Assembly (NCBI GenBank): GCA_028286905.1
Contig: JAQBQP010000001.1
Span: forward strand, 15,114-79,113
Origin: Candidatus Doudnabacteria bacterium
GTDB taxonomy: Bacteria > Patescibacteriota > Doudnabacteria > UBA920 > VMFF01
DNA length: 64,000 nucleotides
Direction of reading: 5' to 3'
The notes beneath the pieces were generated by a model. That model ran no database searches. It was not told the origin of the DNA and was given only the letters and a program-made list of their open reading frames with translations. The translations under genes and the position numbers were made by a program. Below are positions 5,113-42,804 of the stretch, piece after piece. The stretch's first letter is position 1. Every line of letters begins with the position of its first letter.

Positions 5113-6369
5113 CTATTTTGTAGCTTCTTCAATTCTGTTTATTGCAACGATGTAGGCTGCGCTTCGGTAGGAAGTTTTATATTTAACTTTTGTTTCGTGC
5201 ACTGATTTCCATGCTGCGACCATTAAAGCGTCTAACTTTTTTAGAACGTCTTCCTTGGTCCAGCTTTCATTGTGCATGTTTTGATACCATTCGTAATAAC
5301 TTGTAGCCACTCCGCCGGAGTTAGCTAGAATATCTGGAATAACAACAATTTCTTTTTGTTCAAACAAGCGGTCAGCTTCAGGAGAAGTTGGACCGTTCGC
5401 TAATTCTAAAATTACTTTGGCTTTTACTCGAGCTGCGTTTTCCGCAGTAAGAACATTTTCAAACGCTGCTGGCACTAAAATTGATACGGGCAATTCCAAA
5501 AGCTGTTCATTGGTTATTTCTGTAGTTCCAGCTAATCCCCGCAAAGCACCGGTAGATTTTTTATGCGCCTCTGCAGCAGCAACGTCTATTCCCAATTCAC
5601 TGTACACGCCACCTTTACTATCTGACAAAGCTACAATTTTCAAATTCAATCCGGCAGTGCTTTCAGCAAAGTATGTTGCAACGTTTCCAAATCCTTGAAT
5701 AGCGACAGTTAAATTATCTTTCAGCTCTACGGCATGTTCCTTTAGTACTTCGCGCAAAACATAACCGCCGCCAAAACCAGTAGCTTCGGTGCGGCCTTGT
5801 GAACCGCCGTTTTCCAAGCTCTTACCGGTGAAAGTTGCTGGCGCTTTTGTACCGGTAATTTTTTCGTACTCATCGAGCATCCATCCCATTATCTTTCCAT
5901 TGGTATTTACATCCGGTGCTGGCACATCAAAGCTTGGGCCAATCACTGGATATATTTTCTTAACGTAACCGCGAGACAAGCGCTCTAGCTCTCCTTCTGA
6001 AAGCTCTTTTGGATCAACGATAATTCCACCTTTGCCGCCTCCAAACGGAACATTAACTACAGCATTTTTAAAAGTCATCCAAAAGCTCAACGCTCGCACT
6101 TCATCTAAGCTAACCTGCGGATGGAAACGAATCCCGCCTTTGTAGGGTCCACGCGCATTATTATGCTGCGCTCTAAAGCCTTGAAAAATCTTTTGAGTAC
6201 CATCATCCATTTTTAATGGAATGGTCACTTCGACATACCGATCTGGATATTTGATGGCTTCGATAAAATCAAGGTCCGTACCGGCAACTTTAGCAGCATC
6301 TTCAAGTTGAGAGATAGCTGTTTGAAAAGGATTGATGTTCATAATTTTATTTATAAAATTAAAACCCAA
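5113..6369 (-). CDS. gdhA: NAD(P)-dependent glutamate dehydrogenase
   Basis: 418 aa. Glu/Leu/Phe/Val dehydrogenase signature NVPFGGGKGG, with a Rossmann C-terminal half. Confidence 0.9.
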   Translation of the reverse strand: MGFNFINKIMNINPFQTAISQLEDAAKVAGTDLDFIEAIKYPDRYVEVTIPLKMDDGTQKIFQGFRAQHNNARGPYKGGIRFHPQVSLDEVRALSFWMTFKNAVVNVPFGGGKGGIIVDPKELSEGELERLSRGYVKKIYPVIGPSFDVPAPDVNTNGKIMGWMLDEYEKITGTKAPATFTGKSLENGGSQGRTEATGFGGGYVLREVLKEHAVELKDNLTVAIQGFGNVATYFAESTAGLNLKIVALSDSKGGVYSELGIDVAAAEAHKKSTGALRGLAGTTEITNEQLLELPVSILVPAAFENVLTAENAARVKAKVILELANGPTSPEADRLFEQKEIVVIPDILANSGGVATSYYEWYQNMHNESWTKEDVLKKLDALMVAAWKSVHETKVKYKTSYRSAAYIVAINRIEEATK

Positions 6370-6724
6370 ACGCCAAAGTCATAGCCGCAAAACCAACCCC
6401 TACCAAAGCAGAGCTCGCAACAATAGCTGCTGGGAAATTTCTTGATTGTCTTATTTTGTAAAATAACAACCCTTCGACCGCTGCTACCACTGCAAGATAG
6501 ATACCAATTTTGCTGCAAAAGCTCGATACTGTTCCAGGGGTCCTGCTAGCCCAAACAAGAAGTGAGCCTGTCACAAGTTGTAATCCCAAGCCAACGCCAA
6601 TATTGGCAGCAAAGGATTTTAGATTATTTAAACGGTTTTTCAAAACTGCCAGTAGCGCCGCTAGCATTAAAGCTGCTAGCCCCAAAGCGCCTGCAAGATG
6701 CAACACCAAGATTGTTTTAAGCAT
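6359..6724 (-). CDS. small integral membrane protein, hypothetical
   Basis: 121 aa, 3-4 predicted TM helices. Its stop overlaps the gdhA start by 11 nt. Confidence 0.3.
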   Translation of the reverse strand: MLKTILVLHLAGALGLAALMLAALLAVLKNRLNNLKSFAANIGVGLGLQLVTGSLLVWASRTPGTVSSFCSKIGIYLAVVAAVEGLLFYKIRQSRNFPAAIVASSALVGVGFAAMTLAFGF

Positions 6725-6780
6725 GTAATTAAATATTACGACTTAGTTCTTACTCATTATACCATGATTATTGAGCCGAT

Positions 6781-7170
6781 TTAAAAAGACAAGAATGGAT
6801 CAGGATATAAGTCTAGAATGCGACAAGACTTAATCTTGCCCTTGAGAGTTGTTGCGATGACCTCCGCATTGTCAGAAAATTCAGCAATTTTTTGCCTGCA
6901 TAGTGCGCAGGGATAAGCGGGTTCTTCAATATCTAGAACGATTAGCACTTTTGTAATTTTCTTTTCTCCGGCAGCAATCGCCGTATCGATTGCATTCGTT
7001 TCGCCATGAGTAGTATTTGTGAAAGCAACGCTTTCAACATTGCATCCGCTATAAATTTTCCCGCTCTCGCCTACTACTGCGGCCCCAACTTTAAAATGAG
7101 AGATTGGAGAATGGGCATTCTCTCGCACTTTTTTAGCAGCTTCAATTAATTCAATAGTTTGTGCGTCCAT
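6781..7170 (-). CDS. cdd: cytidine/deoxycytidylate deaminase family protein (cytidine deaminase size class)
   Basis: 129 aa. Zinc-ligand motifs HGE and PCALCRQ (the H/C-x-E ... PCxxC pattern). Confidence 0.7.
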   Translation of the reverse strand: MDAQTIELIEAAKKVRENAHSPISHFKVGAAVVGESGKIYSGCNVESVAFTNTTHGETNAIDTAIAAGEKKITKVLIVLDIEEPAYPCALCRQKIAEFSDNAEVIATTLKGKIKSCRILDLYPDPFLSF

Positions 7171-7653: not shown

Positions 7654-8205
7654 TTATACATCAGTCATATGATTCTGATTATAAACCAAAGTATCATAGC
7701 CCTGCATAACACGATCTTCTTTAGAGATCCCCAAAGCAGCTAAGAACTCAAACAACTTATCCTGTTCCTGCGTTTCAATATTTTCTTCAACTAGCTTTTC
7801 AACTTCTATAAAAGATCCCAGCCCTTCCACATCATCCAGACAAATCTCATAATCTTTATACTTAGATTTCTGTCGGGTCTTCAATACGTGTGCATACTCT
7901 TTATAACCCAACAAGTCTATAATATCGGCCATAACTGCCGAATCACTAACTGCGAGTTCTTTTTCTAAACAATCAAGCTCATTAGTAATACTGCGTTTCA
8001 AAGTAAACAAAGCTTTACCATTTTGTACTCTAATTCTTAAAACATTTCCCTGATGTGTCGCCAAACCAATATATTCGGGCAACATGTAAATTCTGTCAGA
8101 CTGCGCAATTGGTTCGTTGAAAACACAACCCAATGCTTTTATAGCCTTCATTGTTTTATTTCGATCTTGAAGCCTTGCTTTAACTTCTATTTCTCTCATG
8201 ATCAC
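7654..8205 (-). CDS. CYTH-domain protein (CyaB-like class IV adenylyl cyclase / triphosphate tunnel metalloenzyme)
   Basis: 183 aa. N-terminal EIEVKARL (ExExK tunnel motif) and later acidic motifs typical of CYTH. Confidence 0.65.
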   Translation of the reverse strand: MIMREIEVKARLQDRNKTMKAIKALGCVFNEPIAQSDRIYMLPEYIGLATHQGNVLRIRVQNGKALFTLKRSITNELDCLEKELAVSDSAVMADIIDLLGYKEYAHVLKTRQKSKYKDYEICLDDVEGLGSFIEVEKLVEENIETQEQDKLFEFLAALGISKEDRVMQGYDTLVYNQNHMTDV

Positions 8206-8270
8206 AGAATAACAAAAAAACGCCCTTTGAGCGATTTTTTGTTCTGAATATGAAGGTTCTTTGGCCTGGT

Positions 8271-8945
8271 CTAATTATAATAGATTATTTTCTTGCAATT
8301 TTTCGCTCCACAATTGCAAATAAATTTTTGAGGTGTTTTGGTACGGCTAGAGAAATCTGCAGTAAGCTCTTCTTCTGCTTTAATATCCTTTTTAGCCACC
8401 ATTATAAAATTATTCACTATCTTACAGTTGGCTGAACAAGAGTGATTTATAAAATCTGATGCATCCAATTCTGATTCTTTTGTTTCCGCCAAATAAAAAC
8501 CTGGATAAAGCTCTAAAGCATAATTAAAAGCAATGCTCTTTGGTAAAGTTTTAATCTCTTTTTTCGTTATAACACGCCCTCCCCAGACTGCCACAACGGA
8601 GCTTTTTTTGATTGTTTGAGCAGCAAAAAGTCCTAAGCCTTGGATCGAGCTGAATCTAGTTTTCGCATAATGGTGAACATACCCATGGACCCGGGGCTTG
8701 CGAGTAACTTGTCTAAGTATTTTATTCAAATTCATAAATTTCTGGACTTTTATATGTTTAAAAGATTTACTCCGTCTTTCAAAATGTGTACCCTTTCTTT
8801 TCCCTAATAAAACTTTATGGTCTTTGATCAACACCACTCCAACACCGACCTGAGGTCTATTTACTAAATCCATAGAAATGGTACCTAATAATCTTAAAAA
8901 ACAATTATCAATCCATTTTATCAAAGCATAACATAGGTCGCTCAA
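8271..8945 (-). CDS. SET-domain protein (putative protein lysine methyltransferase)
   Basis: 224 aa. GLGLFA (GxG), INHSCSANC (NHSCxPN), ELTADF (ELxxDY-like) and post-SET CNCGAKNCKK cysteine cluster. Confidence 0.7.
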   Translation of the reverse strand: MSDLCYALIKWIDNCFLRLLGTISMDLVNRPQVGVGVVLIKDHKVLLGKRKGTHFERRSKSFKHIKVQKFMNLNKILRQVTRKPRVHGYVHHYAKTRFSSIQGLGLFAAQTIKKSSVVAVWGGRVITKKEIKTLPKSIAFNYALELYPGFYLAETKESELDASDFINHSCSANCKIVNNFIMVAKKDIKAEEELTADFSSRTKTPQKFICNCGAKNCKKIIYYN

Positions 8946-9835
8946 AAATTATTTTTATTATTTAACCCTGCGATACTGGGCAATGCCGCTGCGACAATAA
9001 TCAATAGACCGCCTACTACTACACTAACTGTGAGCGATTCATTAAATATCCAAATACCAAAAATTATACTGAACACTATCTCCAACAAACCCAATAACGC
9101 ACCAATACTAGCATCAATGTATTTAAAACCTGCAATAACTAACCAGAATCCTAGCAAAGAAGCCACACTATAACATAGCTGCCAAAACCAGGGCATTGAA
9201 AAACTTAGGCTGATTTGACGTTCTTTAATTACCAACGAAACTATTAAGTTAGTAACGAGAATTATTCCCCAGCTCAAACAGACCACATACAGTGGCGAAT
9301 AATCGCCAGTGAGCTTTTTTGAAAATGCAATTTCGCCGCCACTAGCAATACCATTCAAAACAGCCATCGCTGCCGCGAAAGCAATAAAGTGAGAAATAGA
9401 AAAGGAAAAAATTAAATACATTCCTATTACAGCAAGGACTGCAGACCAGGATTTAATTGCAGTAAACTTTTCTTTAAGAAAGACAGCTCCGATTAAATTC
9501 ATTGTTAAAAACATCGAGACGAAAAATAGAAGTGAGGCCGTACCAATATCCATATGGTTAAAAGCATAAAACAATGGCGCCTGTGTTAGAGATGTAAAAA
9601 CTAAGAAGACAGCTACCCATTTTCTATCTTCGGGTTTTATTTCAACTATTTCTTTACGAATAAGTACAATTGGTGCAAGCAGAACTAAAATAATTAAAGC
9701 CCTGGTCCAACCTTGAAAGAAGCTATCCATTGAAGGACCAATCAAGCGCGACCACACCCCATAACTTCCAAACATCAATGCGGAAAGTAAAACTAGAAGG
9801 TTGCCGATATTTTTAGGCGATTTTTCCATATACAA
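8942..9835 (-). CDS. DMT-superfamily (EamA-like) transporter
   Basis: 297 aa. About 10 TM helices in two repeated halves. Confidence 0.55.
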   Translation of the reverse strand: MYMEKSPKNIGNLLVLLSALMFGSYGVWSRLIGPSMDSFFQGWTRALIILVLLAPIVLIRKEIVEIKPEDRKWVAVFLVFTSLTQAPLFYAFNHMDIGTASLLFFVSMFLTMNLIGAVFLKEKFTAIKSWSAVLAVIGMYLIFSFSISHFIAFAAAMAVLNGIASGGEIAFSKKLTGDYSPLYVVCLSWGIILVTNLIVSLVIKERQISLSFSMPWFWQLCYSVASLLGFWLVIAGFKYIDASIGALLGLLEIVFSIIFGIWIFNESLTVSVVVGGLLIIVAAALPSIAGLNNKNNF

Positions 9836-9958
9836 AGCATAACAGAACTAGCCGAAAGGTTCTAACCACGCATCAGGGATATAAAATCTTCCAGAATTTC
9901 TACCATAGTATGCATTATCTCTTTACTTGCAAAAGCCTTTCTTGTAAGCTATGCATCT

Positions 9959-10297
9959 ATGGAAATAATCAAATCACTAAACTTAGGCGTAGCGTTTTTT
10001 CTAGAGTTACTAATGCTAGCTGTTTTTGGGTATACAGGATTTAGCCTAACCCAAAACACTTATCTTAGAGCGGGCTTCGCAATTGCCATTCCACTCGTTG
10101 CCGTAATACTGTGGGCTTTCTTAGCTGCCCCTAATTCAGGAACAAGACTGCACCAACCTTGGCTGTTGCTATTTCAAGCAATCCTATTTGGTCTCGCCTT
10201 CTATAGCTTGTGTAAATTACACCATCCTAAATTTGCTCTTGCTTTGATCTTTGTTTGGATAATTAGCACGGCTCTTAGCCTGTTTTGGAATCAATAA
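9959..10297 (+). CDS. small membrane protein (YrdB/DUF2568-like)
   Basis: 112 aa, 4 hydrophobic helices. Confidence 0.3.
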   Translation: MEIIKSLNLGVAFFLELLMLAVFGYTGFSLTQNTYLRAGFAIAIPLVAVILWAFLAAPNSGTRLHQPWLLLFQAILFGLAFYSLCKLHHPKFALALIFVWIISTALSLFWNQ

Positions 10298-10439
10298 TTT
10301 CAGTGGCGGAAAAGTTTCGCCTCCCAAAAAACTTAGCTTGCACCAAACTCCCAGTCCTGATAAACTAGTTCAATGTAACTGGGATGATACCCTGCGAAAG
10401 CCGCAGAGATAAGCCCACAAGAACCCAAAGGAGGGTTAA

Positions 10440-10928
10440 GTGAAAACGCTCACGAATGAGCCGCAGGTCCGCACGCCTTCGGAGAAGATCATTCCGGCAA
10501 GTCGCGGAACGTTCTACAGCTATGCCTCCGTGTTCACAATCGCGCGGCCGCTGTTCTGCCTGATGGATTGCAAGGCGAACAAGGCCCGTCCGACAGAAGA
10601 CGCCGAGACGCTCGTCGAAGAAGTCGACATGGTCTTCAATTTCGGTGATCCGGTCCGGCTCCGCTCGCCGAATTCCAGGACGACCCAGATCGCACGCATC
10701 GAGATGAACGACTACGCCTTCGATGAAGTGCGTCAGAAGAAGGACGGCGAGGCTCTGGCCCAGATCGTCCGCCAGCTCATGGCGACCGAACAGGTCACCA
10801 CGGACATGGCACTCGAGCCCGGAATGGTTCTCGGGGTCGCGACGTCGAACAACAAGTTCGGCCTTCTCCGCATCGCCGCGCTGGCCGATTCATTCGTATC
10901 GATCGACGCCTGCCACATCCTCCTGTAA
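10440..10928 (+). CDS. hypothetical protein encoded in a high-GC island, GTG start
   Basis: 162 aa. AAGGAGGG SD lies 5 nt upstream of the GTG. GC is about 60%. Followed by a hairpin terminator. Confidence 0.5.
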   Translation: MKTLTNEPQVRTPSEKIIPASRGTFYSYASVFTIARPLFCLMDCKANKARPTEDAETLVEEVDMVFNFGDPVRLRSPNSRTTQIARIEMNDYAFDEVRQKKDGEALAQIVRQLMATEQVTTDMALEPGMVLGVATSNNKFGLLRIAALADSFVSIDACHILL

Positions 10929-10954
10929 CACGAGGGCGCGGTAAGGCAGCACAA

Positions 10955-10995
10955 AACGCCGTCAGAGGATCAAACCTCTGGCGGCGTTTCTCATA
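10955..10995 (+). terminator. rho-independent terminator of the high-GC 162-aa gene
   Basis: acgccgtcagagg-atcaaa-cctctggcggcgt stem, followed by ttctcatattc. Confidence 0.6.
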
Positions 10996-11081
10996 TTCAT
11001 GAACTACCATGGCAGTGGGATGTGGCAACTGTGCTCCGAGAACATACGAATTATGTTCATGTCCCCGTTATGAAATAGCTA

Positions 11082-11678
11082 CTACTTAAATTTAAAAGTT
11101 GAGAGAATTTGATTAAAAACTTTATCAGCTTCTGAAGCATCAGGTAGGCCATTATTATAGCTAACTTCAATAAAGGAGTTTGGTAAATTTGGGTTTTTAA
11201 TAAAAACATCTGGTCCAGACGAAGGCGAGTCCCCGCTTATTTCATACGCTTCTATCTGAGGAAGATTTAGCTTCTTAACCACGTAATACTCGGAACTTAC
11301 TAAGCTAACATTTTTTACGTCCTGCAGTCCTACATAAATTTCATAACCAGGAATCCAATCCTTTCCCTCCACCCCGGATGGTTTTACCCCTCCCCCATCA
11401 TATATTGGGAGCGAAGTATTACTAATTCGAAAGGTATGATTGAAAGCAGAATCGTTAGTTTTGGTATATAAGTTTTTTGGGTACTTAAACTCAAATTTAT
11501 ATTTACTGTCGGTATAAGTTTGGAGATTTGCATTTAAGCTATTTGGAGGTGTCTCAGAAACAGGATTTTTAGACTGAGTAGTAGCCTTCACTTGATCGGG
11601 GTTATTAACTACTGTATTTGAGTGACATCCCGTTGATAAAAACAAAATACTGGTTACTAATAAAAATATTTTTTTCAT
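11082..11678 (-). CDS. lipoprotein, hypothetical
   Basis: 198 aa. Signal peptide with lipobox LSTGC. Confidence 0.45.
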   Translation of the reverse strand: MKKIFLLVTSILFLSTGCHSNTVVNNPDQVKATTQSKNPVSETPPNSLNANLQTYTDSKYKFEFKYPKNLYTKTNDSAFNHTFRISNTSLPIYDGGGVKPSGVEGKDWIPGYEIYVGLQDVKNVSLVSSEYYVVKKLNLPQIEAYEISGDSPSSGPDVFIKNPNLPNSFIEVSYNNGLPDASEADKVFNQILSTFKFK

Positions 11679-11711
11679 GGCTCACGCAAAATTAATTGCT
11701 TTAAGTATAAC

Positions 11712-11739
11712 AAAAAATCGCCTATTCGGCGATTTTTTT
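11712..11739. terminator. bidirectional hairpin terminator-like module (aaaaaatcgcc-tatt-cggcgattttttt)
   Basis: Perfect stem flanked by an A-run and a T-run. It is immediately followed by a degenerate tRNA-His 3'-end-like sequence tggggtcgcatagcgaaag at 11741..11759. Confidence 0.5.
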
Positions 11740-12036
11740 CTGGGGTCGCATAGCGAAAGATGTGGCAACTGTTCTTCAGCAAACGAAGGAATATGTAGTT
11801 ATTCCTGATCTCAGATAATTTTCTTATACAAACATAGAGAGTACCGTCACCCACCCTCCCCTGGGGGTCAATTTTATTCATTTAGATGGGGTTGTATGCG
11901 AATCGTTTTTTCTGATTTTAAGAAATTTGTGCAGCCACAGCATGGATTCTATTTTTGCATTTAATGGTAAGGACTTAAAGACACTAACATATACTAGCGT
12001 CCTGTGTTTGGATCGCACAGTAGACTACGTTAGAAC

Positions 12037-13974
12037 CTATTTTTTGGCTTGCTTTTTTCGTTTTTTTCTTCGCGGCACAACCCATAAAAACGAAGCTAAT
12101 AAGAGAAGCCCTATTAATAAAAGAAAGATGCGCAGAACGCATCTTTCTTTTATATCTATATTATCTTTCTGTAAGATTGTTGGAGCAGGAGAAGCAACAA
12201 TGACTGTAGCGATGGCAAGATCTTTTACTAAAATACCATTGGCTTGACCAGTTGCTATCGCTGTATTTGTAGTAGTCTTTAAAATCCTCGTAGTACAAGT
12301 GTAGTCCCAAGTCTCAGTAATACCGAGTCTCGAATCACTATTTTTATCACCAGTAACGTATTCGACCGGACTACATTTATCATCAGTGATGTTAACATTA
12401 CTCAGCGCGATTTTTCCAGGGTTGCTAATTTTTTGAACGTAAGTAATCATCCCTCCCCTTACTGGCAAAGTAAATGAGTTCGGAACATTTATAACATGAA
12501 TAATCGGTGTTATAACTATAGCTGGCATTCCGACCACAACCGTGGCGCTTGCAATATCTGTTGCAGAAATATTATTGGCCCAACCAGTCGCGACTGCAAC
12601 ATCAATGTTGGTTTTTGTAAGCCTAACGGAACAACGGTAAATCCATATTTCATTTATATCAAGTACGTCGTCAGAATTAATATCACCGGAAGTAAGATTG
12701 ATAGGCTTACAACTGTTACCAAGTATTGTAATATTGGTCACAGGAACCGTTCCAATATTACGTAACGTGTAAGTGAACGTCACTAAACCCGGGCCGCCAG
12801 GCAAGGCCAAAGGATTTGGAATTTTAATAATATCAATAACCGGTGGGGTCGGAACAACGACCGGAATAAATGGAACAACTGGTGGCGACTGTCCACCAGA
12901 ACCACCACCTCCTGATGAAGGAGGGACAATCAGCGGTGCGATGTCATCATTAATAACTATGCAGAACATCTGGCTGCCAGAAACCACATCGATCCGACCA
13001 GAAGCGTCACAATCTCCGGAAAATTCTTGAGTGTAGTTTACATCTGCAGTCTCTGTCACGGTGTACGATGCAGGTGCCGCAAAGGAATTGGTCTGGCCAG
13101 AAATGACTGACGAGCCATTTACGAACAGCGGAAAGTCAGCCACGACTTTGGTTCGACCATTATCATTGATCACTGTAGCAACGACATTGATCGATGCAGA
13201 TGGTGGTGGAGTGGGAGTTGGACTAGGCGAAGGTGTTGGAGTAGGCGTCGGTGAAGGGCTTGGAGCTGGAGGCGGAGGCGGCGCTGGGGCACTACATGAA
13301 GGCACGGTAATGGAGTTAGTATCAGAGGTTACCGCTTTGCCAAATGCCAGAGCTCTTCCTGTCCATATCGTGCCAGCACCCAACGTCACGGCCGCAGGAT
13401 CAATCACAGTTCCTATAAAAGTTGTTCCGGCACCTAGAGTTACCGCACCAGTCGGCGTCCAAAAAATATCACAAGCCGATGCTCCTCCGGCTAACGCAAT
13501 CGTTATACCAGCTGTAGAATTTAGTGCGCCAACGATCCTGAAGGTGTATGTCCCACTACCGCTAAGAGTGATCCCGGTTGTTATGGAAACAGCACCAGTA
13601 ATACAATACACTCCTGGAATTATTGGTTGAGATAAGGTGGCGAGATCAGTAGCAGCACCAAAAATAAAAGTACAAGTTTCAGCATTTAAGGCGCTCAAAG
13701 CAGTGCCCTGATCTGCTCCTGCCGCCGTATAGGGGTCAGAGGATCCATAATTCGTATGTGTACCAGAAGGTGCAATCGCAGGCGCAACGGTGAAACCGAC
13801 ATCTCCATTGATCGTGGTTGCTGACGTATTGGCGTAAGTACCAGTAAGCACGCCATAAGTTGCCGCTGCTCCCAAAGATGGAGTGGTGGCTGCAGCGTCG
13901 ACTTGTTGTGTACCAAGCCTAAGCACGAAAAAAACGACCAATAAAACCATCAGGATATTAGCAATTCTTTTCAT
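12037..13974 (-). CDS. cell-surface protein: N-terminal ice-binding-like (DUF3494) domain, Pro/Thr/Ser linker, two DUF11-type repeats, C-terminal TM anchor with basic tail
   Basis: 645 aa. LGAAATYGVLTGTYANTSATTINGDVGF resembles the DUF3494 start. PAPPPPPAPSPSPTPTPTPSPSPTPTPPPS linker. Two ~90-aa repeats with the N.TD.KC...GD.NSD..L...E.W.Y.C pattern (DUF11-like). C-terminal IFLLLIGLLLLASFLWVVPRRKKRKK. Confidence 0.55.
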   Translation of the reverse strand: MKRIANILMVLLVVFFVLRLGTQQVDAAATTPSLGAAATYGVLTGTYANTSATTINGDVGFTVAPAIAPSGTHTNYGSSDPYTAAGADQGTALSALNAETCTFIFGAATDLATLSQPIIPGVYCITGAVSITTGITLSGSGTYTFRIVGALNSTAGITIALAGGASACDIFWTPTGAVTLGAGTTFIGTVIDPAAVTLGAGTIWTGRALAFGKAVTSDTNSITVPSCSAPAPPPPPAPSPSPTPTPTPSPSPTPTPPPSASINVVATVINDNGRTKVVADFPLFVNGSSVISGQTNSFAAPASYTVTETADVNYTQEFSGDCDASGRIDVVSGSQMFCIVINDDIAPLIVPPSSGGGGSGGQSPPVVPFIPVVVPTPPVIDIIKIPNPLALPGGPGLVTFTYTLRNIGTVPVTNITILGNSCKPINLTSGDINSDDVLDINEIWIYRCSVRLTKTNIDVAVATGWANNISATDIASATVVVGMPAIVITPIIHVINVPNSFTLPVRGGMITYVQKISNPGKIALSNVNITDDKCSPVEYVTGDKNSDSRLGITETWDYTCTTRILKTTTNTAIATGQANGILVKDLAIATVIVASPAPTILQKDNIDIKERCVLRIFLLLIGLLLLASFLWVVPRRKKRKKQAKK

Positions 13975-14122
13975 ATTTGTTTTTTACCCTTCTAATTAAA
14001 ATACAAAACCGGACAAAGTCCGGTCAAAACTCTAATTTTTGAGTGGAATTTGAAAGTAAGAGTACTTACAACGTAAGTATCGCTTCAATTCAATTAAAAA
14101 ACAATAGGGATCCTTTGCCAAC

Positions 14123-14147
14123 AAAAAACCGCCTTTTCGGCGATTTT
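14123..14147. terminator. hairpin module paralogous to 11712..11739 (aaaaaaccgcc-tttt-cggcgatttt)
   Basis: Same architecture and sequence family as the 11712 hairpin. It is followed 7 nt later by the tRNA-His 3'-end duplicate. Confidence 0.45.
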
Positions 14148-14154
14148 CTATTTA

Positions 14155-14169
14155 TGGGGTGCCCGAAGG
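14155..14169 (-). repeat. 15-bp perfect duplicate of the tRNA-His 3' end (att-like direct repeat)
   Basis: tggggtgcccgaagg is identical to 14299..14313, which is the CCA end plus acceptor and T-stem of tRNA-His. It also forms an inverted repeat with gccttcggcac at 14206..14216. Confidence 0.6.
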
Positions 14170-14260
14170 CTGCTCCTTCCAGTCGCAGCATTTCCTCTTT
14201 GGTTTGCCTTCGGCACAACCACACAGAAGAAGGTCAGGAAAGTTTCGCCTTCATGAACTA

Positions 14261-14301
14261 CCATTACAAAAGCCTCCAATTTTTGGAGGCTTTTGTAATG
14301 G
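14261..14301. other. perfect 19-bp-arm palindrome (ccattacaaaagcctccaa / ttggaggcttttgtaatgg) abutting and overlapping the tRNA-His CCA end
   Basis: Read directly from the sequence. The loop is ttt. The right arm ends in the tgg that encodes the tRNA CCA. Confidence 0.7.
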
Positions 14302-14373
14302 GGTGCCCGAAGGGAATCGGACCCTCGTGACCGCTGCCACAGAGCGGCGTTCTGCCATTGAACTACGGGCACC
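14299..14373 (-). tRNA. tRNA-His (anticodon GUG) with encoded G-1 and encoded CCA
   Basis: Hand-folded. G-1 then GTGCCCG acceptor, GTTC/GAAC D-stem, CCGCT-CTGTGGC-AGCGG anticodon arm (GUG), GAGGG/CCCTT T-stem, CGGGCAC acceptor, discriminator C, CCA. Confidence 0.85.
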
Positions 14374-14411
14374 ATAATATTTTGCGCGACACATAAACAT
14401 CAGTCGCTTTT

Positions 14412-14442
14412 AAAACACAAAACTCTTACACAGATGTAAGAG
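14412..14442 (-). terminator. terminator of the 352-aa membrane protein gene
   Basis: ctcttaca-cag-atgtaagag hairpin, followed in minus orientation by ttttgtgtttt. Confidence 0.5.
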
Positions 14443-14516
14443 CAATAGATTTGTCCGCTGTGTCAGACAAAAGAATCATACGCTTTTTAGACGCTTTAGT
14501 CAATCGCAGTAGCCAC

Positions 14517-15575
14517 TTAGGCAATACGCTTCTGCGCCCATTTCTTCTGAATCCAAGAGTCCAATCCCCACTCCCCACCATTATTAATCATCAAGTACAA
14601 AGCCAAAGCTAATAAAATATAATGCGGCCAAACAGCTTCCTTGAAAAACAGCACCGACATCGCCATCAAAACAAAAGTAATTAAAGTATTTAACCGCGTC
14701 TGAAAACCTAAAATTATTGCGGTACCTACTACGACTTGCGCCAAGCCAGTCCCTAACGCAATCAACAACGGGTCTTGCGGGAACAGCCAATGGAATTGTG
14801 TTAAATGGTATTGTTGAACTATTTCAACAATTATAATCGGATGCAATAATTTTATACTGATCGCCGGATACAAAACTGAAATGCCGTAAGTAATTCTGAT
14901 AATTGCAATTTCATATTGTTTAAATTTTTCCCGCATCCTGCCTAGAGCGGAGCTCGTTCCTTGCAATAATCGATCAACTGAAAAAACTTTAGAACCAAAA
15001 AATATCAAAGCAATAAACTCTCCAAAGTAATTGAAATAAGTTAGAATATAATCCTTATAAACGATCGTTGCCAGAATAAATACCAATAAAGAAACAGCTC
15101 CTATTACTTCGCTAAATAAGCCAATAATCAGCATTATCCCTAATATATAGAGTAAGATGTGAATTAACCCGCCAAAAGGCAGGCTATATACACTAATCTC
15201 TGGCCCAAGATAAGCGTGAGTTTGCGCTGAAGCAATAAAAGAAATGCCTAATGCAAATCTTAAAACAACGCTGCCGAATGGGTCGAACCGCTTAATAAAT
15301 TTATCAAACCGAATTCCCCACTTTGAATGTTGAAAAAGAAAATATAAAACAAACAAAATAAAACTGCCTAAACCAAAAGCCACTCCTATAATCAAGTTGT
15401 GCGGATTTTTTAAAGCATTAAAAACGTTCAAGCTATAATCGCGCATTCCAGCATCAATTTGAGCATGACTTAAAACATAATTTTCGTGTGCGGAACTTGT
15501 AAAAGGCATTGCCCATAAAAAGGCTAGTAAAGCACCGACAATTAACTGAAATTTTATTTTTATTTTGTTTCGCAT
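14517..15575 (-). CDS. polytopic membrane protein, hypothetical
   Basis: 352 aa with a signal-like N-terminus and 8 or more TM helices. Confidence 0.35.
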   Translation of the reverse strand: MRNKIKIKFQLIVGALLAFLWAMPFTSSAHENYVLSHAQIDAGMRDYSLNVFNALKNPHNLIIGVAFGLGSFILFVLYFLFQHSKWGIRFDKFIKRFDPFGSVVLRFALGISFIASAQTHAYLGPEISVYSLPFGGLIHILLYILGIMLIIGLFSEVIGAVSLLVFILATIVYKDYILTYFNYFGEFIALIFFGSKVFSVDRLLQGTSSALGRMREKFKQYEIAIIRITYGISVLYPAISIKLLHPIIIVEIVQQYHLTQFHWLFPQDPLLIALGTGLAQVVVGTAIILGFQTRLNTLITFVLMAMSVLFFKEAVWPHYILLALALYLMINNGGEWGLDSWIQKKWAQKRIA

Positions 15576-17706: not shown

Positions 17707-18723
17707 TTATTTCAGCAGTGCTTCTATAATCATCAACATTTGCAAGTTTGCCGGCCCAGAAGTAGTTTTAACTTCCTGGTCCAACGCCTCGAGCTTTCTC
17801 AACGCTTGTCTTACCGCCAACGCTGAGAAATTTCTACCCAGTTTTTTATAAACAAATAATTTGCCGCTAGCAAAGCCGCTTGCCGCCAACATCTCCGGTT
17901 CGCCCATCCCAGAAGCGGCCAAACCTTGAATTAACAAAATGCTTCTGAACTGTTCCGCCAACAAACCCGATAAGCTAATGATCTTGGCTTTCTCGTCGCC
18001 TGGCAAACGATCGATGTACTCGGTTAGCGCTTTGATTGCCGCTGCTTTATTTTTATCGCCCAGTGCGTTGGTTATCGCAAAAATATTTTCATCCAAATTT
18101 TCAGAAATTAAATCTCTAATATTTTCTTCGGTCAGCGCCGCTGCTTTATCTTCAACCGCGGCACCAACAGCTCCACCGCTAAACGCAGCTAGCTTCCGCA
18201 GTTCAGAATCCACCTGCCACAAAGAATAAGCCGGCGCACCAAACGTTGCTGCCCCTCCTCCAGCAAAACTTGAACCTCCAACAAATCCAATCCGTTCCAA
18301 AAACAAATCAAAGCTTCTGCCGCCAAATTTCAAACCGTATAGATTAGCCCGCGCATCAACCCATTTTCTAAATTCTGCTCCCACCAAAGTATTAAACTCC
18401 AAGACTTTTAGCTTGGGGTGCGCTAAAATCTTTTTTGTTTCGGTTTTACGCTTATCCAATTTTTCTTCAAAGAAAACAATTATATTTAAATTTTTAGAAA
18501 TCTCTTCCAAAACCGCTTCATTCACCAAATTCTTAGAAAAGAAATCGTAACCAAAGATAATCTTTCTGCCCCCAAATAGGTTCGCTTCTGTGGCGGTACG
18601 AGCCAAAGCAGCGATACCATCGGTATCATAAAAGACCGCCGGTTCCAACCGTTCTTTAGCTTCCAGCCCCTTTACATACTCCTTTTTGGAGAAATCGTCG
18701 CTGCCTAATAACAGATATATCAT
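17707..18723 (-). CDS. holA: DNA polymerase III delta subunit
   Basis: 338 aa. N-terminal MIYLLLGSDDF (cf. the HolA start) and a helical C-terminal domain. Confidence 0.55.
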   Translation of the reverse strand: MIYLLLGSDDFSKKEYVKGLEAKERLEPAVFYDTDGIAALARTATEANLFGGRKIIFGYDFFSKNLVNEAVLEEISKNLNIIVFFEEKLDKRKTETKKILAHPKLKVLEFNTLVGAEFRKWVDARANLYGLKFGGRSFDLFLERIGFVGGSSFAGGGAATFGAPAYSLWQVDSELRKLAAFSGGAVGAAVEDKAAALTEENIRDLISENLDENIFAITNALGDKNKAAAIKALTEYIDRLPGDEKAKIISLSGLLAEQFRSILLIQGLAASGMGEPEMLAASGFASGKLFVYKKLGRNFSALAVRQALRKLEALDQEVKTTSGPANLQMLMIIEALLK

Positions 18724-19464: not shown

Positions 19465-19764
19465 TTAGTGCGCTACTGGGATTGGCACCGGGTTAGAAAA
19501 TGGATCGGCGGCACCTATCGAATCTGGACTAGTTCCGGGGTCATAGGTTTGAGCTTTAGTATATCTTTGGATTGCTTGGTCCATCAGTTTAAAATCTACT
19601 CTGACAATATGTTTTTTTATGCTCTGGCTAACGTTTTTATTGTTCAAATTTAAATACAGCTGATACATTAAAAACACTTCGGCCACAATCAATACGAAGA
19701 AGGCCAAGTTTAAAACCAAGCTCAGCACTGTTCGCCAATTAGTTTTTGGAGGTAAAATTTTCAT
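19465..19764 (-). CDS. small membrane-anchored protein, last gene of the pilus operon (function unknown)
   Basis: 99 aa with a single N-terminal TM. Its start abuts the pilO stop at 19764. Confidence 0.3.
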   Translation of the reverse strand: MKILPPKTNWRTVLSLVLNLAFFVLIVAEVFLMYQLYLNLNNKNVSQSIKKHIVRVDFKLMDQAIQRYTKAQTYDPGTSPDSIGAADPFSNPVPIPVAH

Positions 19765-20306
19765 TAACGATAAATGTAAAAATTGGTCAAGATTGTCATT
19801 GTGGCATTGTTCGGTTGGAAATATAAAACGCTAAATGAAACTACTGGAGAAATAAAAGAACTGTTTTCCAAATACTTCATAAAAGTAACTTCGTTAGGAA
19901 AAGGCCCTTTTAAAACAATGGAGTACGGCACCTGAGATAATCCAGAAGCGCTTTGCACCGATTGCGCTTTGTCAGCAGTACCGCTAACAGTTAGGGTTTC
20001 AGTTAAGTTAGTTTTTTCAGCGTATTGCTCAATTTCTTTAATTTCATTAACTAAATGTAAGTCTGAGGTAAACAGATCGCTTGGCTTGATTGGCAGTGTA
20101 TTAACTTTAGTTAAATCGCCTTGAATGTTCTTAAGCGCTTGAACCTGCTCTTTTAAATCTGCTAGCTGGCTAATCTGATCTTGATGATTATTCTGCATGC
20201 TTATCAAACCTTTAGATAACCGCGGCATCACTAAAGTAAAGATTGCTCCGGTCAAAATAACCCAGATAAGCACTGTTAAGGTAATTTTTTTTGTTGGAGA
20301 CATCAT
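19764..20306 (-). CDS. pilO: type IV pilus assembly protein PilO-like
   Basis: 180 aa. N-terminal TM plus coiled coil, positioned after pilN. Overlaps pilN by 4 nt. Confidence 0.55.
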   Translation of the reverse strand: MMSPTKKITLTVLIWVILTGAIFTLVMPRLSKGLISMQNNHQDQISQLADLKEQVQALKNIQGDLTKVNTLPIKPSDLFTSDLHLVNEIKEIEQYAEKTNLTETLTVSGTADKAQSVQSASGLSQVPYSIVLKGPFPNEVTFMKYLENSSFISPVVSFSVLYFQPNNATMTILTNFYIYR

Positions 20307-20857
20307 AGTTTTAACGCTCCATCCGCTAAGTAGAAAGTAAAGTTAAACAGAACATTGCTGGACTTCTGAAGATTTTCCAAAGGCAAATTTATATTTTTAA
20401 ATAATGGCGAGCCGTCTATATTTGAACGTAGCTGCAATACCGCATCGCGAGTTAAACCAACGCCTAAAATATCAATCTTTCCAGATTTAGTGTTTGCGTT
20501 GAATGAAGTTATTACGACTTCTTTCGGTACAAGTTTTGAAAAGCCAATTAAAACTTTTGACCAGTTTGGATTATTTGCTGCAAAATTTATGTAGTCAGTA
20601 TTGGTATTGTTGGTTTTTTGAACTTCTTTGCGAATCGTGTCGTTGTCTTGACGGTCAATTAACGCTTGGTTCTTTTTAATATCAATATCGACGTTGTCTA
20701 AGGTGCTTTGCAAATAAAATCTCCAGCCAATTAAAACCACGATCACTATCGCATAGCTGACTACAGAGGCAATCAAAAACCTCAGCAAGCCGCCATAAAG
20801 CTTTTCTTGCTGCAACACCTTCTGTTCAGATGGGGGAAGTAAGTTAATTAATTTCAT
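20303..20857 (-). CDS. pilN: type IV pilus assembly protein PilN
   Basis: 184 aa. Hallmark N-terminus MKLINLLPP followed by a TM helix. Confidence 0.7.
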   Translation of the reverse strand: MKLINLLPPSEQKVLQQEKLYGGLLRFLIASVVSYAIVIVVLIGWRFYLQSTLDNVDIDIKKNQALIDRQDNDTIRKEVQKTNNTNTDYINFAANNPNWSKVLIGFSKLVPKEVVITSFNANTKSGKIDILGVGLTRDAVLQLRSNIDGSPLFKNINLPLENLQKSSNVLFNFTFYLADGALKL

Positions 20858-21930
20858 TAGTTTACGATTTCTCCGGCATGCATTGCCAACCCAATAGCGG
20901 TGGTGTAACTTAACGAATCCTCGCGCGACAAAGGCGCGCTGACCTTATCTTGGGGATTAAAAACATTTATCCAAGGGTTGCCTAAGGTAATATCAATATG
21001 GTCTAGGTCAGCAAGCTGTTGGTACAAATAACTGGTTAAGTGCAAAAGCTTTGAGGTCCCACCGCACAAAACGATTTGGCTAATCTTTTCTGGATTGTGC
21101 TCATCATGGAATTTGATTATGTTTCTAATTTCCATGACAAGATTATCCACTACGCTAATCAATGCGGCTTTAACGCTCTGGTGTTCTTTCGTATCATCTA
21201 AACCAATCTCTCTTTTTATTGTTTCTGCTTCCTCATCAGTAACGCCCATCGCCCGAGCGATGCTTTGAGTAAAGGCATCCCCTGCGATTGGCACAGTAGA
21301 AGTAAATTGTAGGTTTCCCTTTTCCACCACTACCAAACTGCTACGCAAAGTATCCATGTCTAAAATTAGAACATTTTTAGCACGCATTTCTGCAGAAATT
21401 AAGGCGCGCGTACATGCCGCGGATTCAACCTCAAAAGAGACCGGACGGAAACCAACTGCCTTAAATATTCTCAAAAGAGTGTCAATATAATCTTTAGGCG
21501 CGGCCGTAACTAGCACATCTAATTTTTCATCGCGCTCGCCAATAATTTGCCAATCTAAATACGCCTGGTCCAGTGGAATTGGAATGTATTGCTCGGCTTC
21601 AAAAGGAACCGCGTTCACCGCCTGCTCCTCGCTCATTTTTGGAATCTGCAAAACTCGCACAAAGGCTTTTGATTCTGGTATCGATGCCACAATTTGGTTG
21701 CCGCGCAATTTGCCAAAATTAACATGCTGCAGCATCGCTTTAAGGTGGTTGGTCAGTAAGTCTTCATTTACAATATTATCATTAACAACAACCCCTTTGG
21801 GCAAAGGGTAATCGGAGTAAGCGACAATTTTGTAACTCTTCCCTTTTTTCTGCAGCTGCATTACCTTTATTGATAAATCGCTGAGGTCCAAGCCAAAAGG
21901 AATCTTTTTTTGTTTCCAAATATCAAACAT
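20857..21930 (-). CDS. pilM: type IV pilus assembly protein PilM (actin-like ATPase fold)
   Basis: 357 aa, FtsA/PilM-like. Operon position is directly upstream of pilN, sharing the ATGA overlap. Confidence 0.75.
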   Translation of the reverse strand: MFDIWKQKKIPFGLDLSDLSIKVMQLQKKGKSYKIVAYSDYPLPKGVVVNDNIVNEDLLTNHLKAMLQHVNFGKLRGNQIVASIPESKAFVRVLQIPKMSEEQAVNAVPFEAEQYIPIPLDQAYLDWQIIGERDEKLDVLVTAAPKDYIDTLLRIFKAVGFRPVSFEVESAACTRALISAEMRAKNVLILDMDTLRSSLVVVEKGNLQFTSTVPIAGDAFTQSIARAMGVTDEEAETIKREIGLDDTKEHQSVKAALISVVDNLVMEIRNIIKFHDEHNPEKISQIVLCGGTSKLLHLTSYLYQQLADLDHIDITLGNPWINVFNPQDKVSAPLSREDSLSYTTAIGLAMHAGEIVN

Positions 21931-21948
21931 ATAAATTTATTGTAGCAT

Positions 21949-23160
21949 TTATCCGCCAGCGGAAGAAGTTAAGTTATAAATTGGACTGATCAAAGCAATT
22001 GCTAAGACACCAACCACTCCCCCAATTACCAAAATCATTACCGGTTCGATAATTGAAGACATATTTTTCATAGTATCGTCTACTTCTGATTCATAATGCT
22101 CTGCCATTTCTCCAAGAATTGTTTCGACATTTCCGCTTTCTTCTCCGACCCCAATCATTTGAGTAACTAGATAATCAAACAAGTGCGGATATTTCAGCAA
22201 AGAAGCAGTAATGCTTTTACCAACCCGGACATCCACAGCAATTTGATGAATCGCATCTTGGTATTGGGTGTTGCCCATTGAATCGGCAGCAATGCTTAAA
22301 CTATCTAAAATTGGAGTACCGCTCTTAAGCATCGAGCTCATCGTTCTGGAGAACCTAGCCATATTAATTTTCTTAGCGATTTCGCCAAAGACCGGAGTGT
22401 ACAATAACACTTTATCAAAAGTGCGCTGCCCAACGTTGGTGCGCATTATCGAAATCCCTCCCCCAATCACACCGAATATTATTCCCAAAGCAATAAAAGT
22501 ATGGCCGGACATAAAATCTACAAAGGCAATTACCACCCTGGTCATTAAAGGCAGCTGCATGTTTGAATCTTTGAAAATACCAACCAAAGAAGGCAAAACG
22601 AAGATCGACATCAATACACCCACTAGCAAGATCGCAAACAGCACCACGCTTGGATAGATCATTGCGCCTTTGGTTTTGGACTTCAATTCGTGTTCGCGCT
22701 GCAGCTGAATACTTAGCTGTTCCAAGCTTTTATCCAAAGATCCAGAAAGCTCGCCCACTTTAAACATGCTGATAAAAATATTCTGAAAGATGTTTGGATA
22801 CTTGGCCAGGGCTTCGCCAACGCTCTTCCCCGATTCAACCTCATTATAAATAACGTTTAGGATCTCGCGCATCTTCGGATTCTTTGCCTGGTTTGAAAGA
22901 ATTTTAACTCCGCGGGTCAAAGGAATACCGGCTTTCAACATAATCGAAAGATTTTGCACAAAAAGAATTTTGTCTTGCAAGCTCACACTAGAAAACCGGC
23001 TCATCATTGATGAAGAAAACTTTGGCTTATTTTCATTCATCTCGGTGGGAATCAAACCCTTTTGATGCAAAACACCAACCGCCTCGTGATACGAGCCAGC
23101 TTCGATAGTGTCAGTTTCACTGCCACCGTCTTTATTTATCGCGGTGTATTTAAATTGCAT
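21949..23160 (-). CDS. pilC: type IV pilus inner-membrane platform protein PilC (GspF family)
   Basis: 403 aa. Two GspF repeats and three TM segments. Confidence 0.85.
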   Translation of the reverse strand: MQFKYTAINKDGGSETDTIEAGSYHEAVGVLHQKGLIPTEMNENKPKFSSSMMSRFSSVSLQDKILFVQNLSIMLKAGIPLTRGVKILSNQAKNPKMREILNVIYNEVESGKSVGEALAKYPNIFQNIFISMFKVGELSGSLDKSLEQLSIQLQREHELKSKTKGAMIYPSVVLFAILLVGVLMSIFVLPSLVGIFKDSNMQLPLMTRVVIAFVDFMSGHTFIALGIIFGVIGGGISIMRTNVGQRTFDKVLLYTPVFGEIAKKINMARFSRTMSSMLKSGTPILDSLSIAADSMGNTQYQDAIHQIAVDVRVGKSITASLLKYPHLFDYLVTQMIGVGEESGNVETILGEMAEHYESEVDDTMKNMSSIIEPVMILVIGGVVGVLAIALISPIYNLTSSAGG

Positions 23161-23173
23161 AACGAAGGATTTT

Positions 23174-42006: not shown

Positions 42007-42804
42007 TTATTTTACAGTTGTTACTGTCGCCTTGTTAATTACAATTGGAGTTTTTGGCGAACCATCGTCTGGACCAACCACAGGGTCGATCGGTACAGAA
42101 CCAATTTTATCAACCACATCCATTCCGGCAATTACTTTGCCGAAGATCGTATAGTTGTGTGGAATATCAACATCGGAGATCATTATAAAGAATTGCGAAC
42201 CATTTGTATTTGGGCCGGCATTAGCCATTGCTAATGTTCCTTTTACATAACCAGCTTTGTAAGATGGAGTATTTGGGTTAAGCTCGTCTTCAAACTTACC
42301 GCCATAAACACTTTCACCGCCGGAACCGGTGCCAGTTGGATCCCCTGCTTGAATTACGAAGCCATGCGCAACGCGATGGAATTTAACATTATTGTAATAA
42401 CCTTTTTCTGATAAACAAACAAAGTTCTGCACGGTCTTTGGTGCGTCTTTATCAAACATCTGTAGTTGAATCTTGCCCATTGTTGTATCAAGAGTTACAA
42501 CTTTGTTGGAGATATCTACACTTGGTTTGAAATTGCCATTGGCATCTTTTTGAGAAGCGTCTGAGCAGGCTGCTGTAGCATCAGTCATATTTTTATCTCC
42601 TGTATTAGTTGTCGAATTAGTATTGGTATTCGTTTCGGCTGAAGTGTTGTTTGCGGAGGACTGCTCGGAAGTTTGGCTTGTCTGGTTATTAGTCTGCGCT
42701 GGAGCAGGACTATCTGCTGTTTTATGCTTCACAGAATAAATAATTATTCCACCACCGAGGAATATAATAAGTCCGATCAAAGCATAAATAAATTTTGAAT
42801 TCAT
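42007..42804 (-). CDS. cyclophilin-type peptidyl-prolyl cis-trans isomerase, membrane-anchored with an N/T/S-rich linker
   Basis: 265 aa. FHRV..GFVIQAGDP...G cyclophilin core. Confidence 0.8.
   Translation of the reverse strand: MNSKFIYALIGLIIFLGGGIIIYSVKHKTADSPAPAQTNNQTSQTSEQSSANNTSAETNTNTNSTTNTGDKNMTDATAACSDASQKDANGNFKPSVDISNKVVTLDTTMGKIQLQMFDKDAPKTVQNFVCLSEKGYYNNVKFHRVAHGFVIQAGDPTGTGSGGESVYGGKFEDELNPNTPSYKAGYVKGTLAMANAGPNTNGSQFFIMISDVDIPHNYTIFGKVIAGMDVVDKIGSVPIDPVVGPDDGSPKTPIVINKATVTTVK

Follow-up and report, generated by a model that had tools for sequence, protein, structure and literature searches.

The 4 kb behind the tRNA-His gene in a stretch of DNA from a metagenome-assembled genome of Candidatus Doudnabacteria (contig JAQBQP010000001.1, positions 15,114 to 79,113; these 64,000 nucleotides are called the window here) can, with a probability of roughly 0.55, be read as an accretion array. 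Such an array would consist of gene modules without an integrase, joined by a conserved element that we call E, which resembles an attachment (att) site as well as a terminator and promoter and which recurs in other Doudnabacteria. Site-specific recombination at the tRNA-His 3' tail and its terminator is the most likely origin of the array. The original prediction, made from the window sequence, also invoked repeated recombination at this tRNA end. Our analysis supports its stacked modules without an integrase, but neither its tRNA-derived third repeat copy nor its claim about cargo.

Structure and distribution of element E

E is about 75 nt long and conserved. On the tRNA strand it consists of a 25-nt arm (CAGTTGCCACATCYTYCRCTATGCG), the sequence ACCCCA(G/T), a short A-rich spacer, a terminator hairpin that often belongs to the T2/T2' family (...GGCGGTTTTTTGTT), and TTTTTTGTTATAnT (TATAnT). 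ACCCCA corresponds to the last six bases of tRNA-His. The copies in the window and their anchor are the following (R1 is the covariance model of E).

14299-14373, minus strand: tRNA-His (GTG), the anchor of the array, with G-1 and CCA encoded (ARAGORN, 14299-14372; Rfam tRNA, 58 bits; G-1 at 14373)
11700-11776, minus strand: full copy of E, made up of the arm CAGTTGCCACATCTTTCGCTATGCG, ACCCCAG, an A-run, hairpin T2' and TTTTTTGTTATACT (93.5 bits with R1)
11019-11032, minus strand: truncated E, the first 14 nt of the arm only (ACAGTTGCCACATC), joined via 8 nt to the repeat M_B (repeat scan)
11887-11902, minus strand: weak candidate for a decayed E core, TTCGC-ATACAACCCCA, in the 264-nt spacer after the 645-aa gene (local alignment, marginal; 98 of 2000 shuffles as good)

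The 14-mer GATGTGGCAACTGT, present at 11019-11032 and 11759-11772 and extending to 59 nt at 64% identity, led to E when it matched three times in the relative L006 among the fetched loci. The sequence beside the full hairpin had been taken for a degenerate third copy of the tRNA 3' end. Only its ACCCCA is tRNA-like, and together with the repeat 'gatgtggcaactgt', which is contained in the arm CAGTTGCCACATCTTTCGCTATGCG, it forms the two halves of E. The gene side of the truncated copy (45 nt, 11033-11077) resembles the same side of the full copy, with 2 of 2000 shuffles scoring as well. The distal junction (M_B and its flank) was also considered as a decayed full E and rejected, as there is no significant similarity past the first 14 nt. 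The marginal core-like sequence at 11887-11902 could be a decayed older junction.

We searched for E with a regular expression over 1.67 Mb of fetched sequence and with R1 over 786 kb from 49 sources (the window and related loci). Both searches returned one full copy in the window and four in L006, or L108 in its extended form; all score 67-94 bits with R1, and nothing else in the 786 kb scores above 25 bits. The first 32 nt of E are identical at 30 positions between the window and copy e1 of L108, although TypA of the same genomes is just 69% identical. Every copy is found downstream of tRNA-His, no more than about 3.6 kb away. The remainder of the 64-kb window, the remaining parts of the 20.6-kb L108 locus and all other related loci among the 786 kb are free of E. 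Because of this confinement, E does not behave as a dispersed repeat of the type of miniature inverted-repeat transposable elements or repetitive extragenic palindromes. The original prediction had named promoter or terminator units shared genome-wide as the finding that would overturn it, and the absence of extra copies in the approximately 786 kb of related loci and in the rest of the window speaks against such units. In Rfam 15, neither E nor the segment 14118-14264 matches a family; only the tRNA passes, and other hits are far below the gathering scores.

By inspection, the hairpin and T-run of E look like an intrinsic terminator, which the terminator scan also reported, and TGTTATAnT reads as an extended -10 motif located 6-27 nt before the next start codon. 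E appears, by the same inspection, to insulate the modules, with the hairpin ending upstream transcription and the -10 motif serving the next gene. At e1 and in L113, the spacing from the motif would give a leaderless NUDIX mRNA.

Module number differs between related loci

The evidence on E comes from three genomes in two clades. L108 extends the locus L006 of a relative to 20.6 kb, and L113, L114 and L115 are three independent contigs of one genome. In L108, an array of four E copies starts about 590 bp downstream of tRNA-His (9498-9573), in tRNA orientation as in the window. The distance from tRNA-His to typA is about 10 kb in L108 versus 1.3 kb in the window, so E is linked to tRNA-His and not to a common gene order.

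Between an HNH endonuclease gene with tRNA-His on one side and a gene for 49 aa on the other, L108 holds a 129-aa gene (reversed) and e1; a NUDIX gene and e2; a 275-aa gene (reversed), a 135-aa gene and e3; and a 67-aa gene, a 250-aa gene and e4. In L113, L114 and L115 the order is HNH, tRNA-His, hairpin, NUDIX, RidA, E and the 49-aa gene; the single E (41 bits) closes a NUDIX and RidA module that starts right after the tRNA-His terminator. BLASTN between L108 and L113 gave only three common blocks, namely, HNH with tRNA and hairpin (69.5%), the NUDIX module (79%), and E with the 49-aa gene (76%). All breakpoints fall at E or at the tRNA flank, and the content between them differs. The differences in presence or absence that had been asked for are thus seen between these two loci, which vary in module number between conserved flanks. 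Judged from these alignments, this is how a cassette-type insertion site would be expected to vary. The genes of the modules are unrelated to one another, and those of the L108 and L113 modules are also unrelated to the window genes.

The tRNA end itself has sequence in common with E beyond ACCCCA in these loci. In L108, the tRNA tail and flank (CACCCCAGCAAAAAG, the hairpin and TTTTTTG) match the right part of E over 13-14 nt, and ACCCCAGCAAAAA(G), also 13-14 nt, is common to the tRNA flank and E in both L108 and L113.

Repeats next to tRNA-His in the window

The window holds further repeats between tRNA-His and the full copy of E and beyond the truncated one.

14298-14313, minus strand: O_t, 16 bp at the tRNA 3' end, duplicated 144 bp downstream (repeat scan)
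14261-14301, no strand: T1, a palindrome with perfectly matched 19-bp arms, overlapping the CCA end (inverted-repeat scan)
14239-14264, minus strand: M_A, an intact copy of the 26-bp repeat M, AAAGTTTCGCCTTCATGAACTACCAT, directly behind T1 (contiguous 12-mer and 15-mer)
14170-14238, minus strand: unique 69-nt spacer separating M_A from the displaced copy of the tRNA 3' end (no tRNA-body similarity in shuffle tests; fold z-score -1.5)
14154-14169, minus strand: O_psi, 16 bp that repeat the tRNA-His 3' end exactly, joined to hairpin T2 (repeat scan)
14118-14152, minus strand: T2, a terminator hairpin from the family found in E (GGCGGTTTTTTGTT), upstream of the 645-aa gene (repeat scan)
10996-11010, minus strand: first half of M_B, TTCATGAACTACCAT (repeat scan)
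10311-10322, minus strand: second half of M_B, AAAGTTTCGCCT, 14 nt past the stop codon of the convergent DUF2568 gene (repeat scan)

All repeats that had been listed earlier exist, two of them with coordinates one base too low (10995 should be 10996 and 11018 should be 11019). The tRNA 3' end is indeed duplicated exactly, but over 16 bp rather than 15 (ATGGGGTGCCCGAAGG, at 14154-14169 and 14298-14313), and the two copies enclose just 128 bp, made up of T1, M_A and 69 nt. The junction of O_psi with T2 resembles the tRNA tail plus terminator of the tRNA-proximal sites in L108 and L113. The 3' arm and T-run of T2 are identical to those of L108 copies e1 and e4. Within the window, the hairpin module recurs once, as had been noticed, with 26 of 28 positions identical between 11709-11736 and 14120-14147 and no other copy. 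The perfect palindrome T1 was also found as described, and it reads as a bidirectional terminator of tRNA-His.

The repeat M is composed of a 12-mer, AAAGTTTCGCCT (10311-10322 and 14239-14250), and a 15-mer, TTCATGAACTACCAT (10996-11010 and 14250-14264). The two abut at 14239-14264 and are parted by a 673-bp high-GC insert at the distal locus; M is therefore intact beside the tRNA terminator and split at its distal copy.

Chance does not account for this density of repeats. Three exact direct repeats of at least 14 nt were counted in the 5-kb region, versus a mean of 0.049 in 2000 first-order Markov simulations of it, none of which reached three. The listed repeats have no further copies in the rest of the 64-kb window. 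The single-run Logan assembly of SRR13312974 is identical to the window across 9900-14600, and this agreement of an independent assembly excludes an assembly artefact.

Several candidates for the segment between T1 and T2 were rejected. Local and collinear alignments of 14170-14268 to the tRNA body are no better than those of shuffles, which speaks against a decayed tRNA-His pseudogene; the 16-mer alone is common to both. No Rfam match was found for signal recognition particle RNA or any other known RNA between T1 and T2. The fold z-score of 14118-14264 is -3.8, a value that may largely reflect the included terminator hairpin, as it is -1.5 without it. An open reading frame (ORF) of 38 aa (14148-14264, minus strand) exactly spans the gap between T1 and T2. 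Its ATG is preceded, at a distance of 8 nt, by GGAGG within the T1 stem, and its first 15 nt recur from 11010 to 10996; the ORF (14264 to 14148) has no support as a real gene, no search for homologues having been made.

Some observations concern the tRNA-His locus more generally. L001 has a perfect palindrome with 21-bp arms and a different sequence at the same place over the encoded CCA end (about 845-890). The remaining relatives carry ordinary hairpins a few bases past the CCA of tRNA-His, in contrast to the long palindromes of the window and L001. Upstream of tRNA-His, a hairpin with its flank (ctcttacacag..gtaagag ... tgtccgctgtgtcagaca) at 14422-14443 is kept in L001 (about 990-1040), L010 (about 18320-18375) and L104 (about 8700-8760), despite a different gene upstream. 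A zinc-ribbon HNH endonuclease gene (155-176 aa) ends 4-8 nt before tRNA-His in four genomes.

L108: HNH gene 8999-9493, tRNA-His 9498-9573
L113: HNH gene 416-907, tRNA-His 916-989
L104: HNH gene 8205-8672, tRNA-His 8125-8200
L002: HNH gene 6309-6839, tRNA-His 6225-6302

For the L108 copy, the Pfam HNH hits are weak and fall below the cutoff. No HNH gene precedes tRNA-His in the window, L001 or L010. The tRNA-His sequence itself is unusually variable. The window, L001, L104 and L106, whose TypA proteins are at least 92% identical, clearly differ in it, and the window tRNA-His matches the one of L010, a distant relative (TypA, 67%), at 100% identity. Such patterns suggest that the tRNA-His gene has been replaced, possibly by a homing-type process.

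The NUDIX/MutT-like module of L108 (10001-10645) has close homologues, at 60-85% identity, across many lineages of the Candidate Phyla Radiation (CPR), including Paceibacterota, Nomurabacteria and Parcubacteria, as well as in records labelled Woesearchaeota or archaeon. In the one other context examined, the homologue P0022 lies in unrelated surroundings without E, and it was rejected as E-linked. The distribution suggests that this small NUDIX gene is often transferred.

Genes of the array and the high-GC insert

The array is bounded by the convergent DUF2568 gene (9959-10297) and by tRNA-His. Read in plus-strand direction, a DoxX-like gene and typA follow past the tRNA. Overall, the window has a GC content of 0.41. 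The genes and the insert of the array are as follows.

12037-13974, minus strand: gene for a 645-aa secreted, anchored surface protein with an Ice_binding/DUF3494 domain and DUF7507 repeats (Pfam)
11082-11678, minus strand: gene for a 198-aa lipoprotein, the module between the full and the truncated E (ORF list)
10323-10995, plus strand: 673-bp foreign insert that splits M_B, with its own ribosome-binding site, a 162-aa orphan ORF (10440-10928) and a terminator (10954-10989) (composition)

The 198-aa lipoprotein has homologues (53% and 31% identity) only at other places; the one with 53% identity belongs to a glycolysis cluster. A phage or plasmid origin was considered and rejected, as neither the 645-aa nor the 198-aa protein has relatives in viral contigs; matches of the 16-mer to such contigs are explained by an unrelated phage terminator or by chance. 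Inside the 645-aa gene, a perfect hairpin with 16-bp arms (12117-12153) lies where the hydrophobic anchor at the C terminus is encoded, 80-116 nt ahead of the stop codon.

The 162-aa gene had been placed at the distal end of the island because of its high GC. Its composition is indeed deviant, with a GC of 0.60 and a GC at third codon positions (GC3) of 0.80, compared with a GC3 of 0.29-0.36 in neighbouring genes and a GC of 0.57 for the whole insert, but it is not the terminus of the island. Its position and composition indicate that the insert, in which E is not present, is a separate, later event from a high-GC donor that landed in M_B. The 162-aa protein belongs to a very rare family. Only three distant homologues with 34-39% identity were found among 5.8 billion proteins, one of them on a contig of 40% GC, and the family has the motifs MDCKANKAR and a C-terminal IDACHILL in common. 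There is no Pfam match and no fold match (predicted local distance difference test score of the model, 64; best PDB match, E = 0.03 and template modelling score 0.40).

The simplest inference is that the insert probably arrived by illegitimate recombination after DNA uptake, since the window carries ComEC and type IV pilus genes and insertion into M needs no site specificity. The intergenic space is about 111 nt, and the chance of hitting the 26-bp M in it is about 23%. For this reason, and because it has just a 4-bp inverted repeat, M was rejected as a dif-like or att core hosting a foreign gene. By Pfam, the window encodes ComEC (42801-44123), PilM and PilC (T2SSF); PilN and PilB (T2SSE) were identified only in syntenic genes of L105/L107. 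From this synteny, the window ORFs at 19764-20857 and 23174-24913 are presumed to be PilN/O and PilB, in a pilus region of 19764-24913.

Probable assembly of the array

If the array grew by accretion, circular or otherwise incoming modules carrying E would recombine with the tRNA tail and terminator or with a resident E. New modules would thereby stack, and older junctions would be pushed outwards, with the recombinase acting in trans or having been lost. The complete E between the 645-aa and 198-aa genes would then be the junction of two tandem insertions (attP-like). One outer junction would be the right half of E, T2, on the exact tRNA tail before the 645-aa gene, and the other would be the left arm alone past the 198-aa gene, joined to the second M. 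M may be the original flank downstream of tRNA-His, because its other copy directly follows the terminator of the tRNA. The analysis shows the anatomy of the locus, the conservation of E, its confinement to arrays downstream of tRNA-His and the variation in module number; we infer how recombination proceeds, where the crossover lies and which kind of enzyme acts. We also propose, tentatively and as less likely than not, that Doudnabacteria use an integron-like form of capture. The tRNA-His tail and terminator would be the dock, E would be recombination site, terminator and promoter at once, the recombinase would be encoded elsewhere, and single-gene modules would move between distant CPR genomes.

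Several observations weigh against assembly of the array by accretion at E. A scan for recombinase Pfam domains in 27 window ORFs (the 3 ORFs of the island and 24 others) found none, in agreement with the absence of an integrase reported before. None was present among the precomputed Pfam hits for the called genes approximately 10 kb to either side of the L108 array, and no integrase lies nearby in any of the three E-bearing genomes. A pattern search of IMG/VR viral contigs, GenBank phages and PLSDB plasmids did not find E or an autonomous element bearing it; M is absent from the viral contigs too. E occurs in only two clades. Comparing the tRNA-His locus across relatives, as had been proposed, showed varying modules in L108 and L113 but no true empty site for the window's own species, for which no close relative was found; its DoxX-like neighbour is just 31% identical in L001 (TypA, 93%), and a metagenome scan gave one relative at 39%. 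In addition, the tRNA-proximal hairpins of L108 and L113 are homologous to each other rather than to the e1 hairpin, which suggests that the exchange took place after the hairpin, between TTTTTTGT and the following T, and not inside ACCCCA. The exact 16-bp tRNA duplicate also lacks the E arm and brackets so short a segment that at least one further, different event has to be assumed. A different element whose core was 16 bp of the tRNA may have left a remnant here, or the event may have been of the Campbell type or illegitimate.

The 645-aa gene belongs with these counterpoints. The nearest genomes in the lineage of the window, L104 (TypA, 95% identical) and L001 (93%), keep a DUF3494 gene by tRNA-His, have no E, no M and no tRNA-tail duplicate, and differ beyond. 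In L104, the gene encodes a 592-aa full-length homologue of the 645-aa protein (42% over 626 aa) directly downstream of tRNA-His. The idea of surface-protein cargo is thus unproven for the 645-aa gene, which is not clearly cargo given these repeat-free neighbours. The gene may be either native, with E-bounded modules also inserting behind it, or an old fixed cassette.

The same L104 homologue is one of the arguments against the originally proposed classical decayed island, a very improbable reading in which three tRNA 3'-end copies would record two or three integrase insertions with the 645-aa and 198-aa genes as cargo. The sharp boundaries of the exact 16-bp duplicate and the drop in identity with distance from the tRNA would fit such an island, and a 3'-end duplicate is the hallmark used by Islander (PMC4383910). 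However, the 16-bp pair encloses just 128 bp, the supposed third copy has only ACCCCA of the tRNA and is part of a conserved non-tRNA element, and there is neither an integrase nor a recognisable integrase pseudogene. A regulatory role for E, as an operator or UP-like 25-nt box with a terminator and an extended -10 promoter, would make the array one regulon and the other repeats by-products of local duplication. The terminator-like hairpin and T-run, the TGTTATAnT motif before the start codons, and the position of the arm 40-75 nt upstream of the -10 motif, which is typical of activator sites, agree with this. We nevertheless consider it quite unlikely, because the 786 kb contain E in no place other than the arrays behind tRNA-His, and copy e2 faces a convergent gene and has no gene to drive. 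Nor would regulation account for the varying gene content between copies in related genomes with breakpoints at E, for the truncated arm and the hybrid of tRNA tail and hairpin in the window, or for an arm that is 30/32 identical across genomes with so divergent a TypA.

Recombination without a dedicated enzyme is unlikely as well. Homologous or illegitimate recombination (Campbell-type, by unequal crossing-over, or homology-facilitated after transformation) would in that case have acted among tRNA-His loci sharing terminator-like sequences. The interleaved order M...O...M...O is in its favour, since one crossover of a circle of 3,254 bp or 144 bp could produce it if both partners already had M and O. 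So are the genes for ComEC and the type IV pilus, the high-GC insert as foreign DNA that entered without E, and the size of the free space, in which M could be hit without site specificity. Sharp-edged repeats of 14-26 bp are, however, short substrates for RecA-dependent recombination, and the 25-nt arm, which is not derived from the tRNA, is kept across distant genomes and is confined to tRNA-His arrays, is left unexplained.

Comparison with known systems

In the way it works, the array comes closest to tandem accretion at the 3' end of a tRNA gene with subsequent loss of the mobility genes. Tandem accretion that pushes older elements outwards and leaves scattered att remnants is documented for tRNA-targeting elements (10.1101/2020.12.28.424599; PMC5704250). 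The hallmark of Islander-type tRNA and tmRNA islands, which carry tyrosine integrases, is a regenerated tRNA plus a displaced fragment (PMC4383910). The window agrees with this in its intact tRNA at one end, the 16-bp displaced 3' copy as a direct repeat and the variable genes behind it, although the hallmark applies to the 16-bp pair alone. Polymorphism with breakpoints at att-like sites is seen for the E-bounded arrays of L108 and L113; in the window's own lineage, L104 and L001 differ only beyond a DUF3494 gene that they keep at tRNA-His, without any of the repeats. The window differs from such islands in that the exact duplicate bounds just 128 bp and no tyrosine or serine integrase was found among the 27 window ORFs. 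Moreover, the junction contains 6 nt of tRNA (13-14 nt in L108 and L113 with the flank) and otherwise consists of the non-tRNA arm and the terminator, and the modules are only 0.5-2.5 kb long, with one or two genes.

The resemblance to cis-mobilizable elements (CIMEs) and tandem accretion, as described for ICESt1/3-related elements and streptococcal tRNA-Lys islands (PMC5704250), is that att-like junctions are kept, integration and transfer genes are lost, and stacking is in tandem at the 3' end of the target. Here, the kept junctions would be the full E, the truncated E and the hybrid of tRNA tail and hairpin, and mobility genes are absent. In contrast to CIMEs, the array has no known cognate integrative and conjugative or integrative and mobilizable element that combines this att with an integrase; its modules are also much smaller, and its host belongs to the CPR. 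We know of no conjugative elements with the E att. The islands shaped by tycheposons in Prochlorococcus (10.1101/2020.12.28.424599) likewise have a tRNA anchor, a small streamlined genome, older elements pushed outwards, scattered remnants with partial att sites, and cargo that is niche-related or of obscure function. Tycheposons, however, have a tyrosine recombinase, replication modules and partial-tRNA repeats, whereas the array has no hallmark genes and a dedicated 75-nt element.

Integron arrays and clusters of attC sites lacking integron-integrases (CALINs) also string together short modules that are unrelated to each other and hold one or two genes, with a similar structured repeat of about 60-140 nt and in variable number, and their integrase may be absent. 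E is without the RYYYAAC and GTTRRRY cores. In the alignment its left ends are (N)CAGTTGCC, without RYYYAAC, and its right end GTTATAY has one mismatch to GTTRRRY, so it was rejected as an integron attC. The anchor is a tRNA 3' end and not attI. IntI, which a CALIN does not require, was not found among the window ORFs scanned or the Pfam hits within 10 kb of the L108 array. The modules appear, by inspection, to carry terminator and promoter motifs, and some are inverted.

Implications for CPR bacteria

CPR (Patescibacteria) genomes are tiny. To our knowledge, few mobile elements have been described in the CPR, and the gain and exchange of accessory genes, for example those for surface proteins, are largely obscure. 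The locus holds a clear recent transfer, with a gene of GC3 0.80 in a genome whose genes have a GC3 of about 0.35. The recurring tRNA-His dock and the recognisable 75-nt junction provide a searchable handle. With R1, the flexible gene pools of these uncultivated bacteria can be mapped and the recombinase can be sought. If such a recombinase is confirmed, the array would represent a compact integron-like cassette platform on a tRNA-tail att site.

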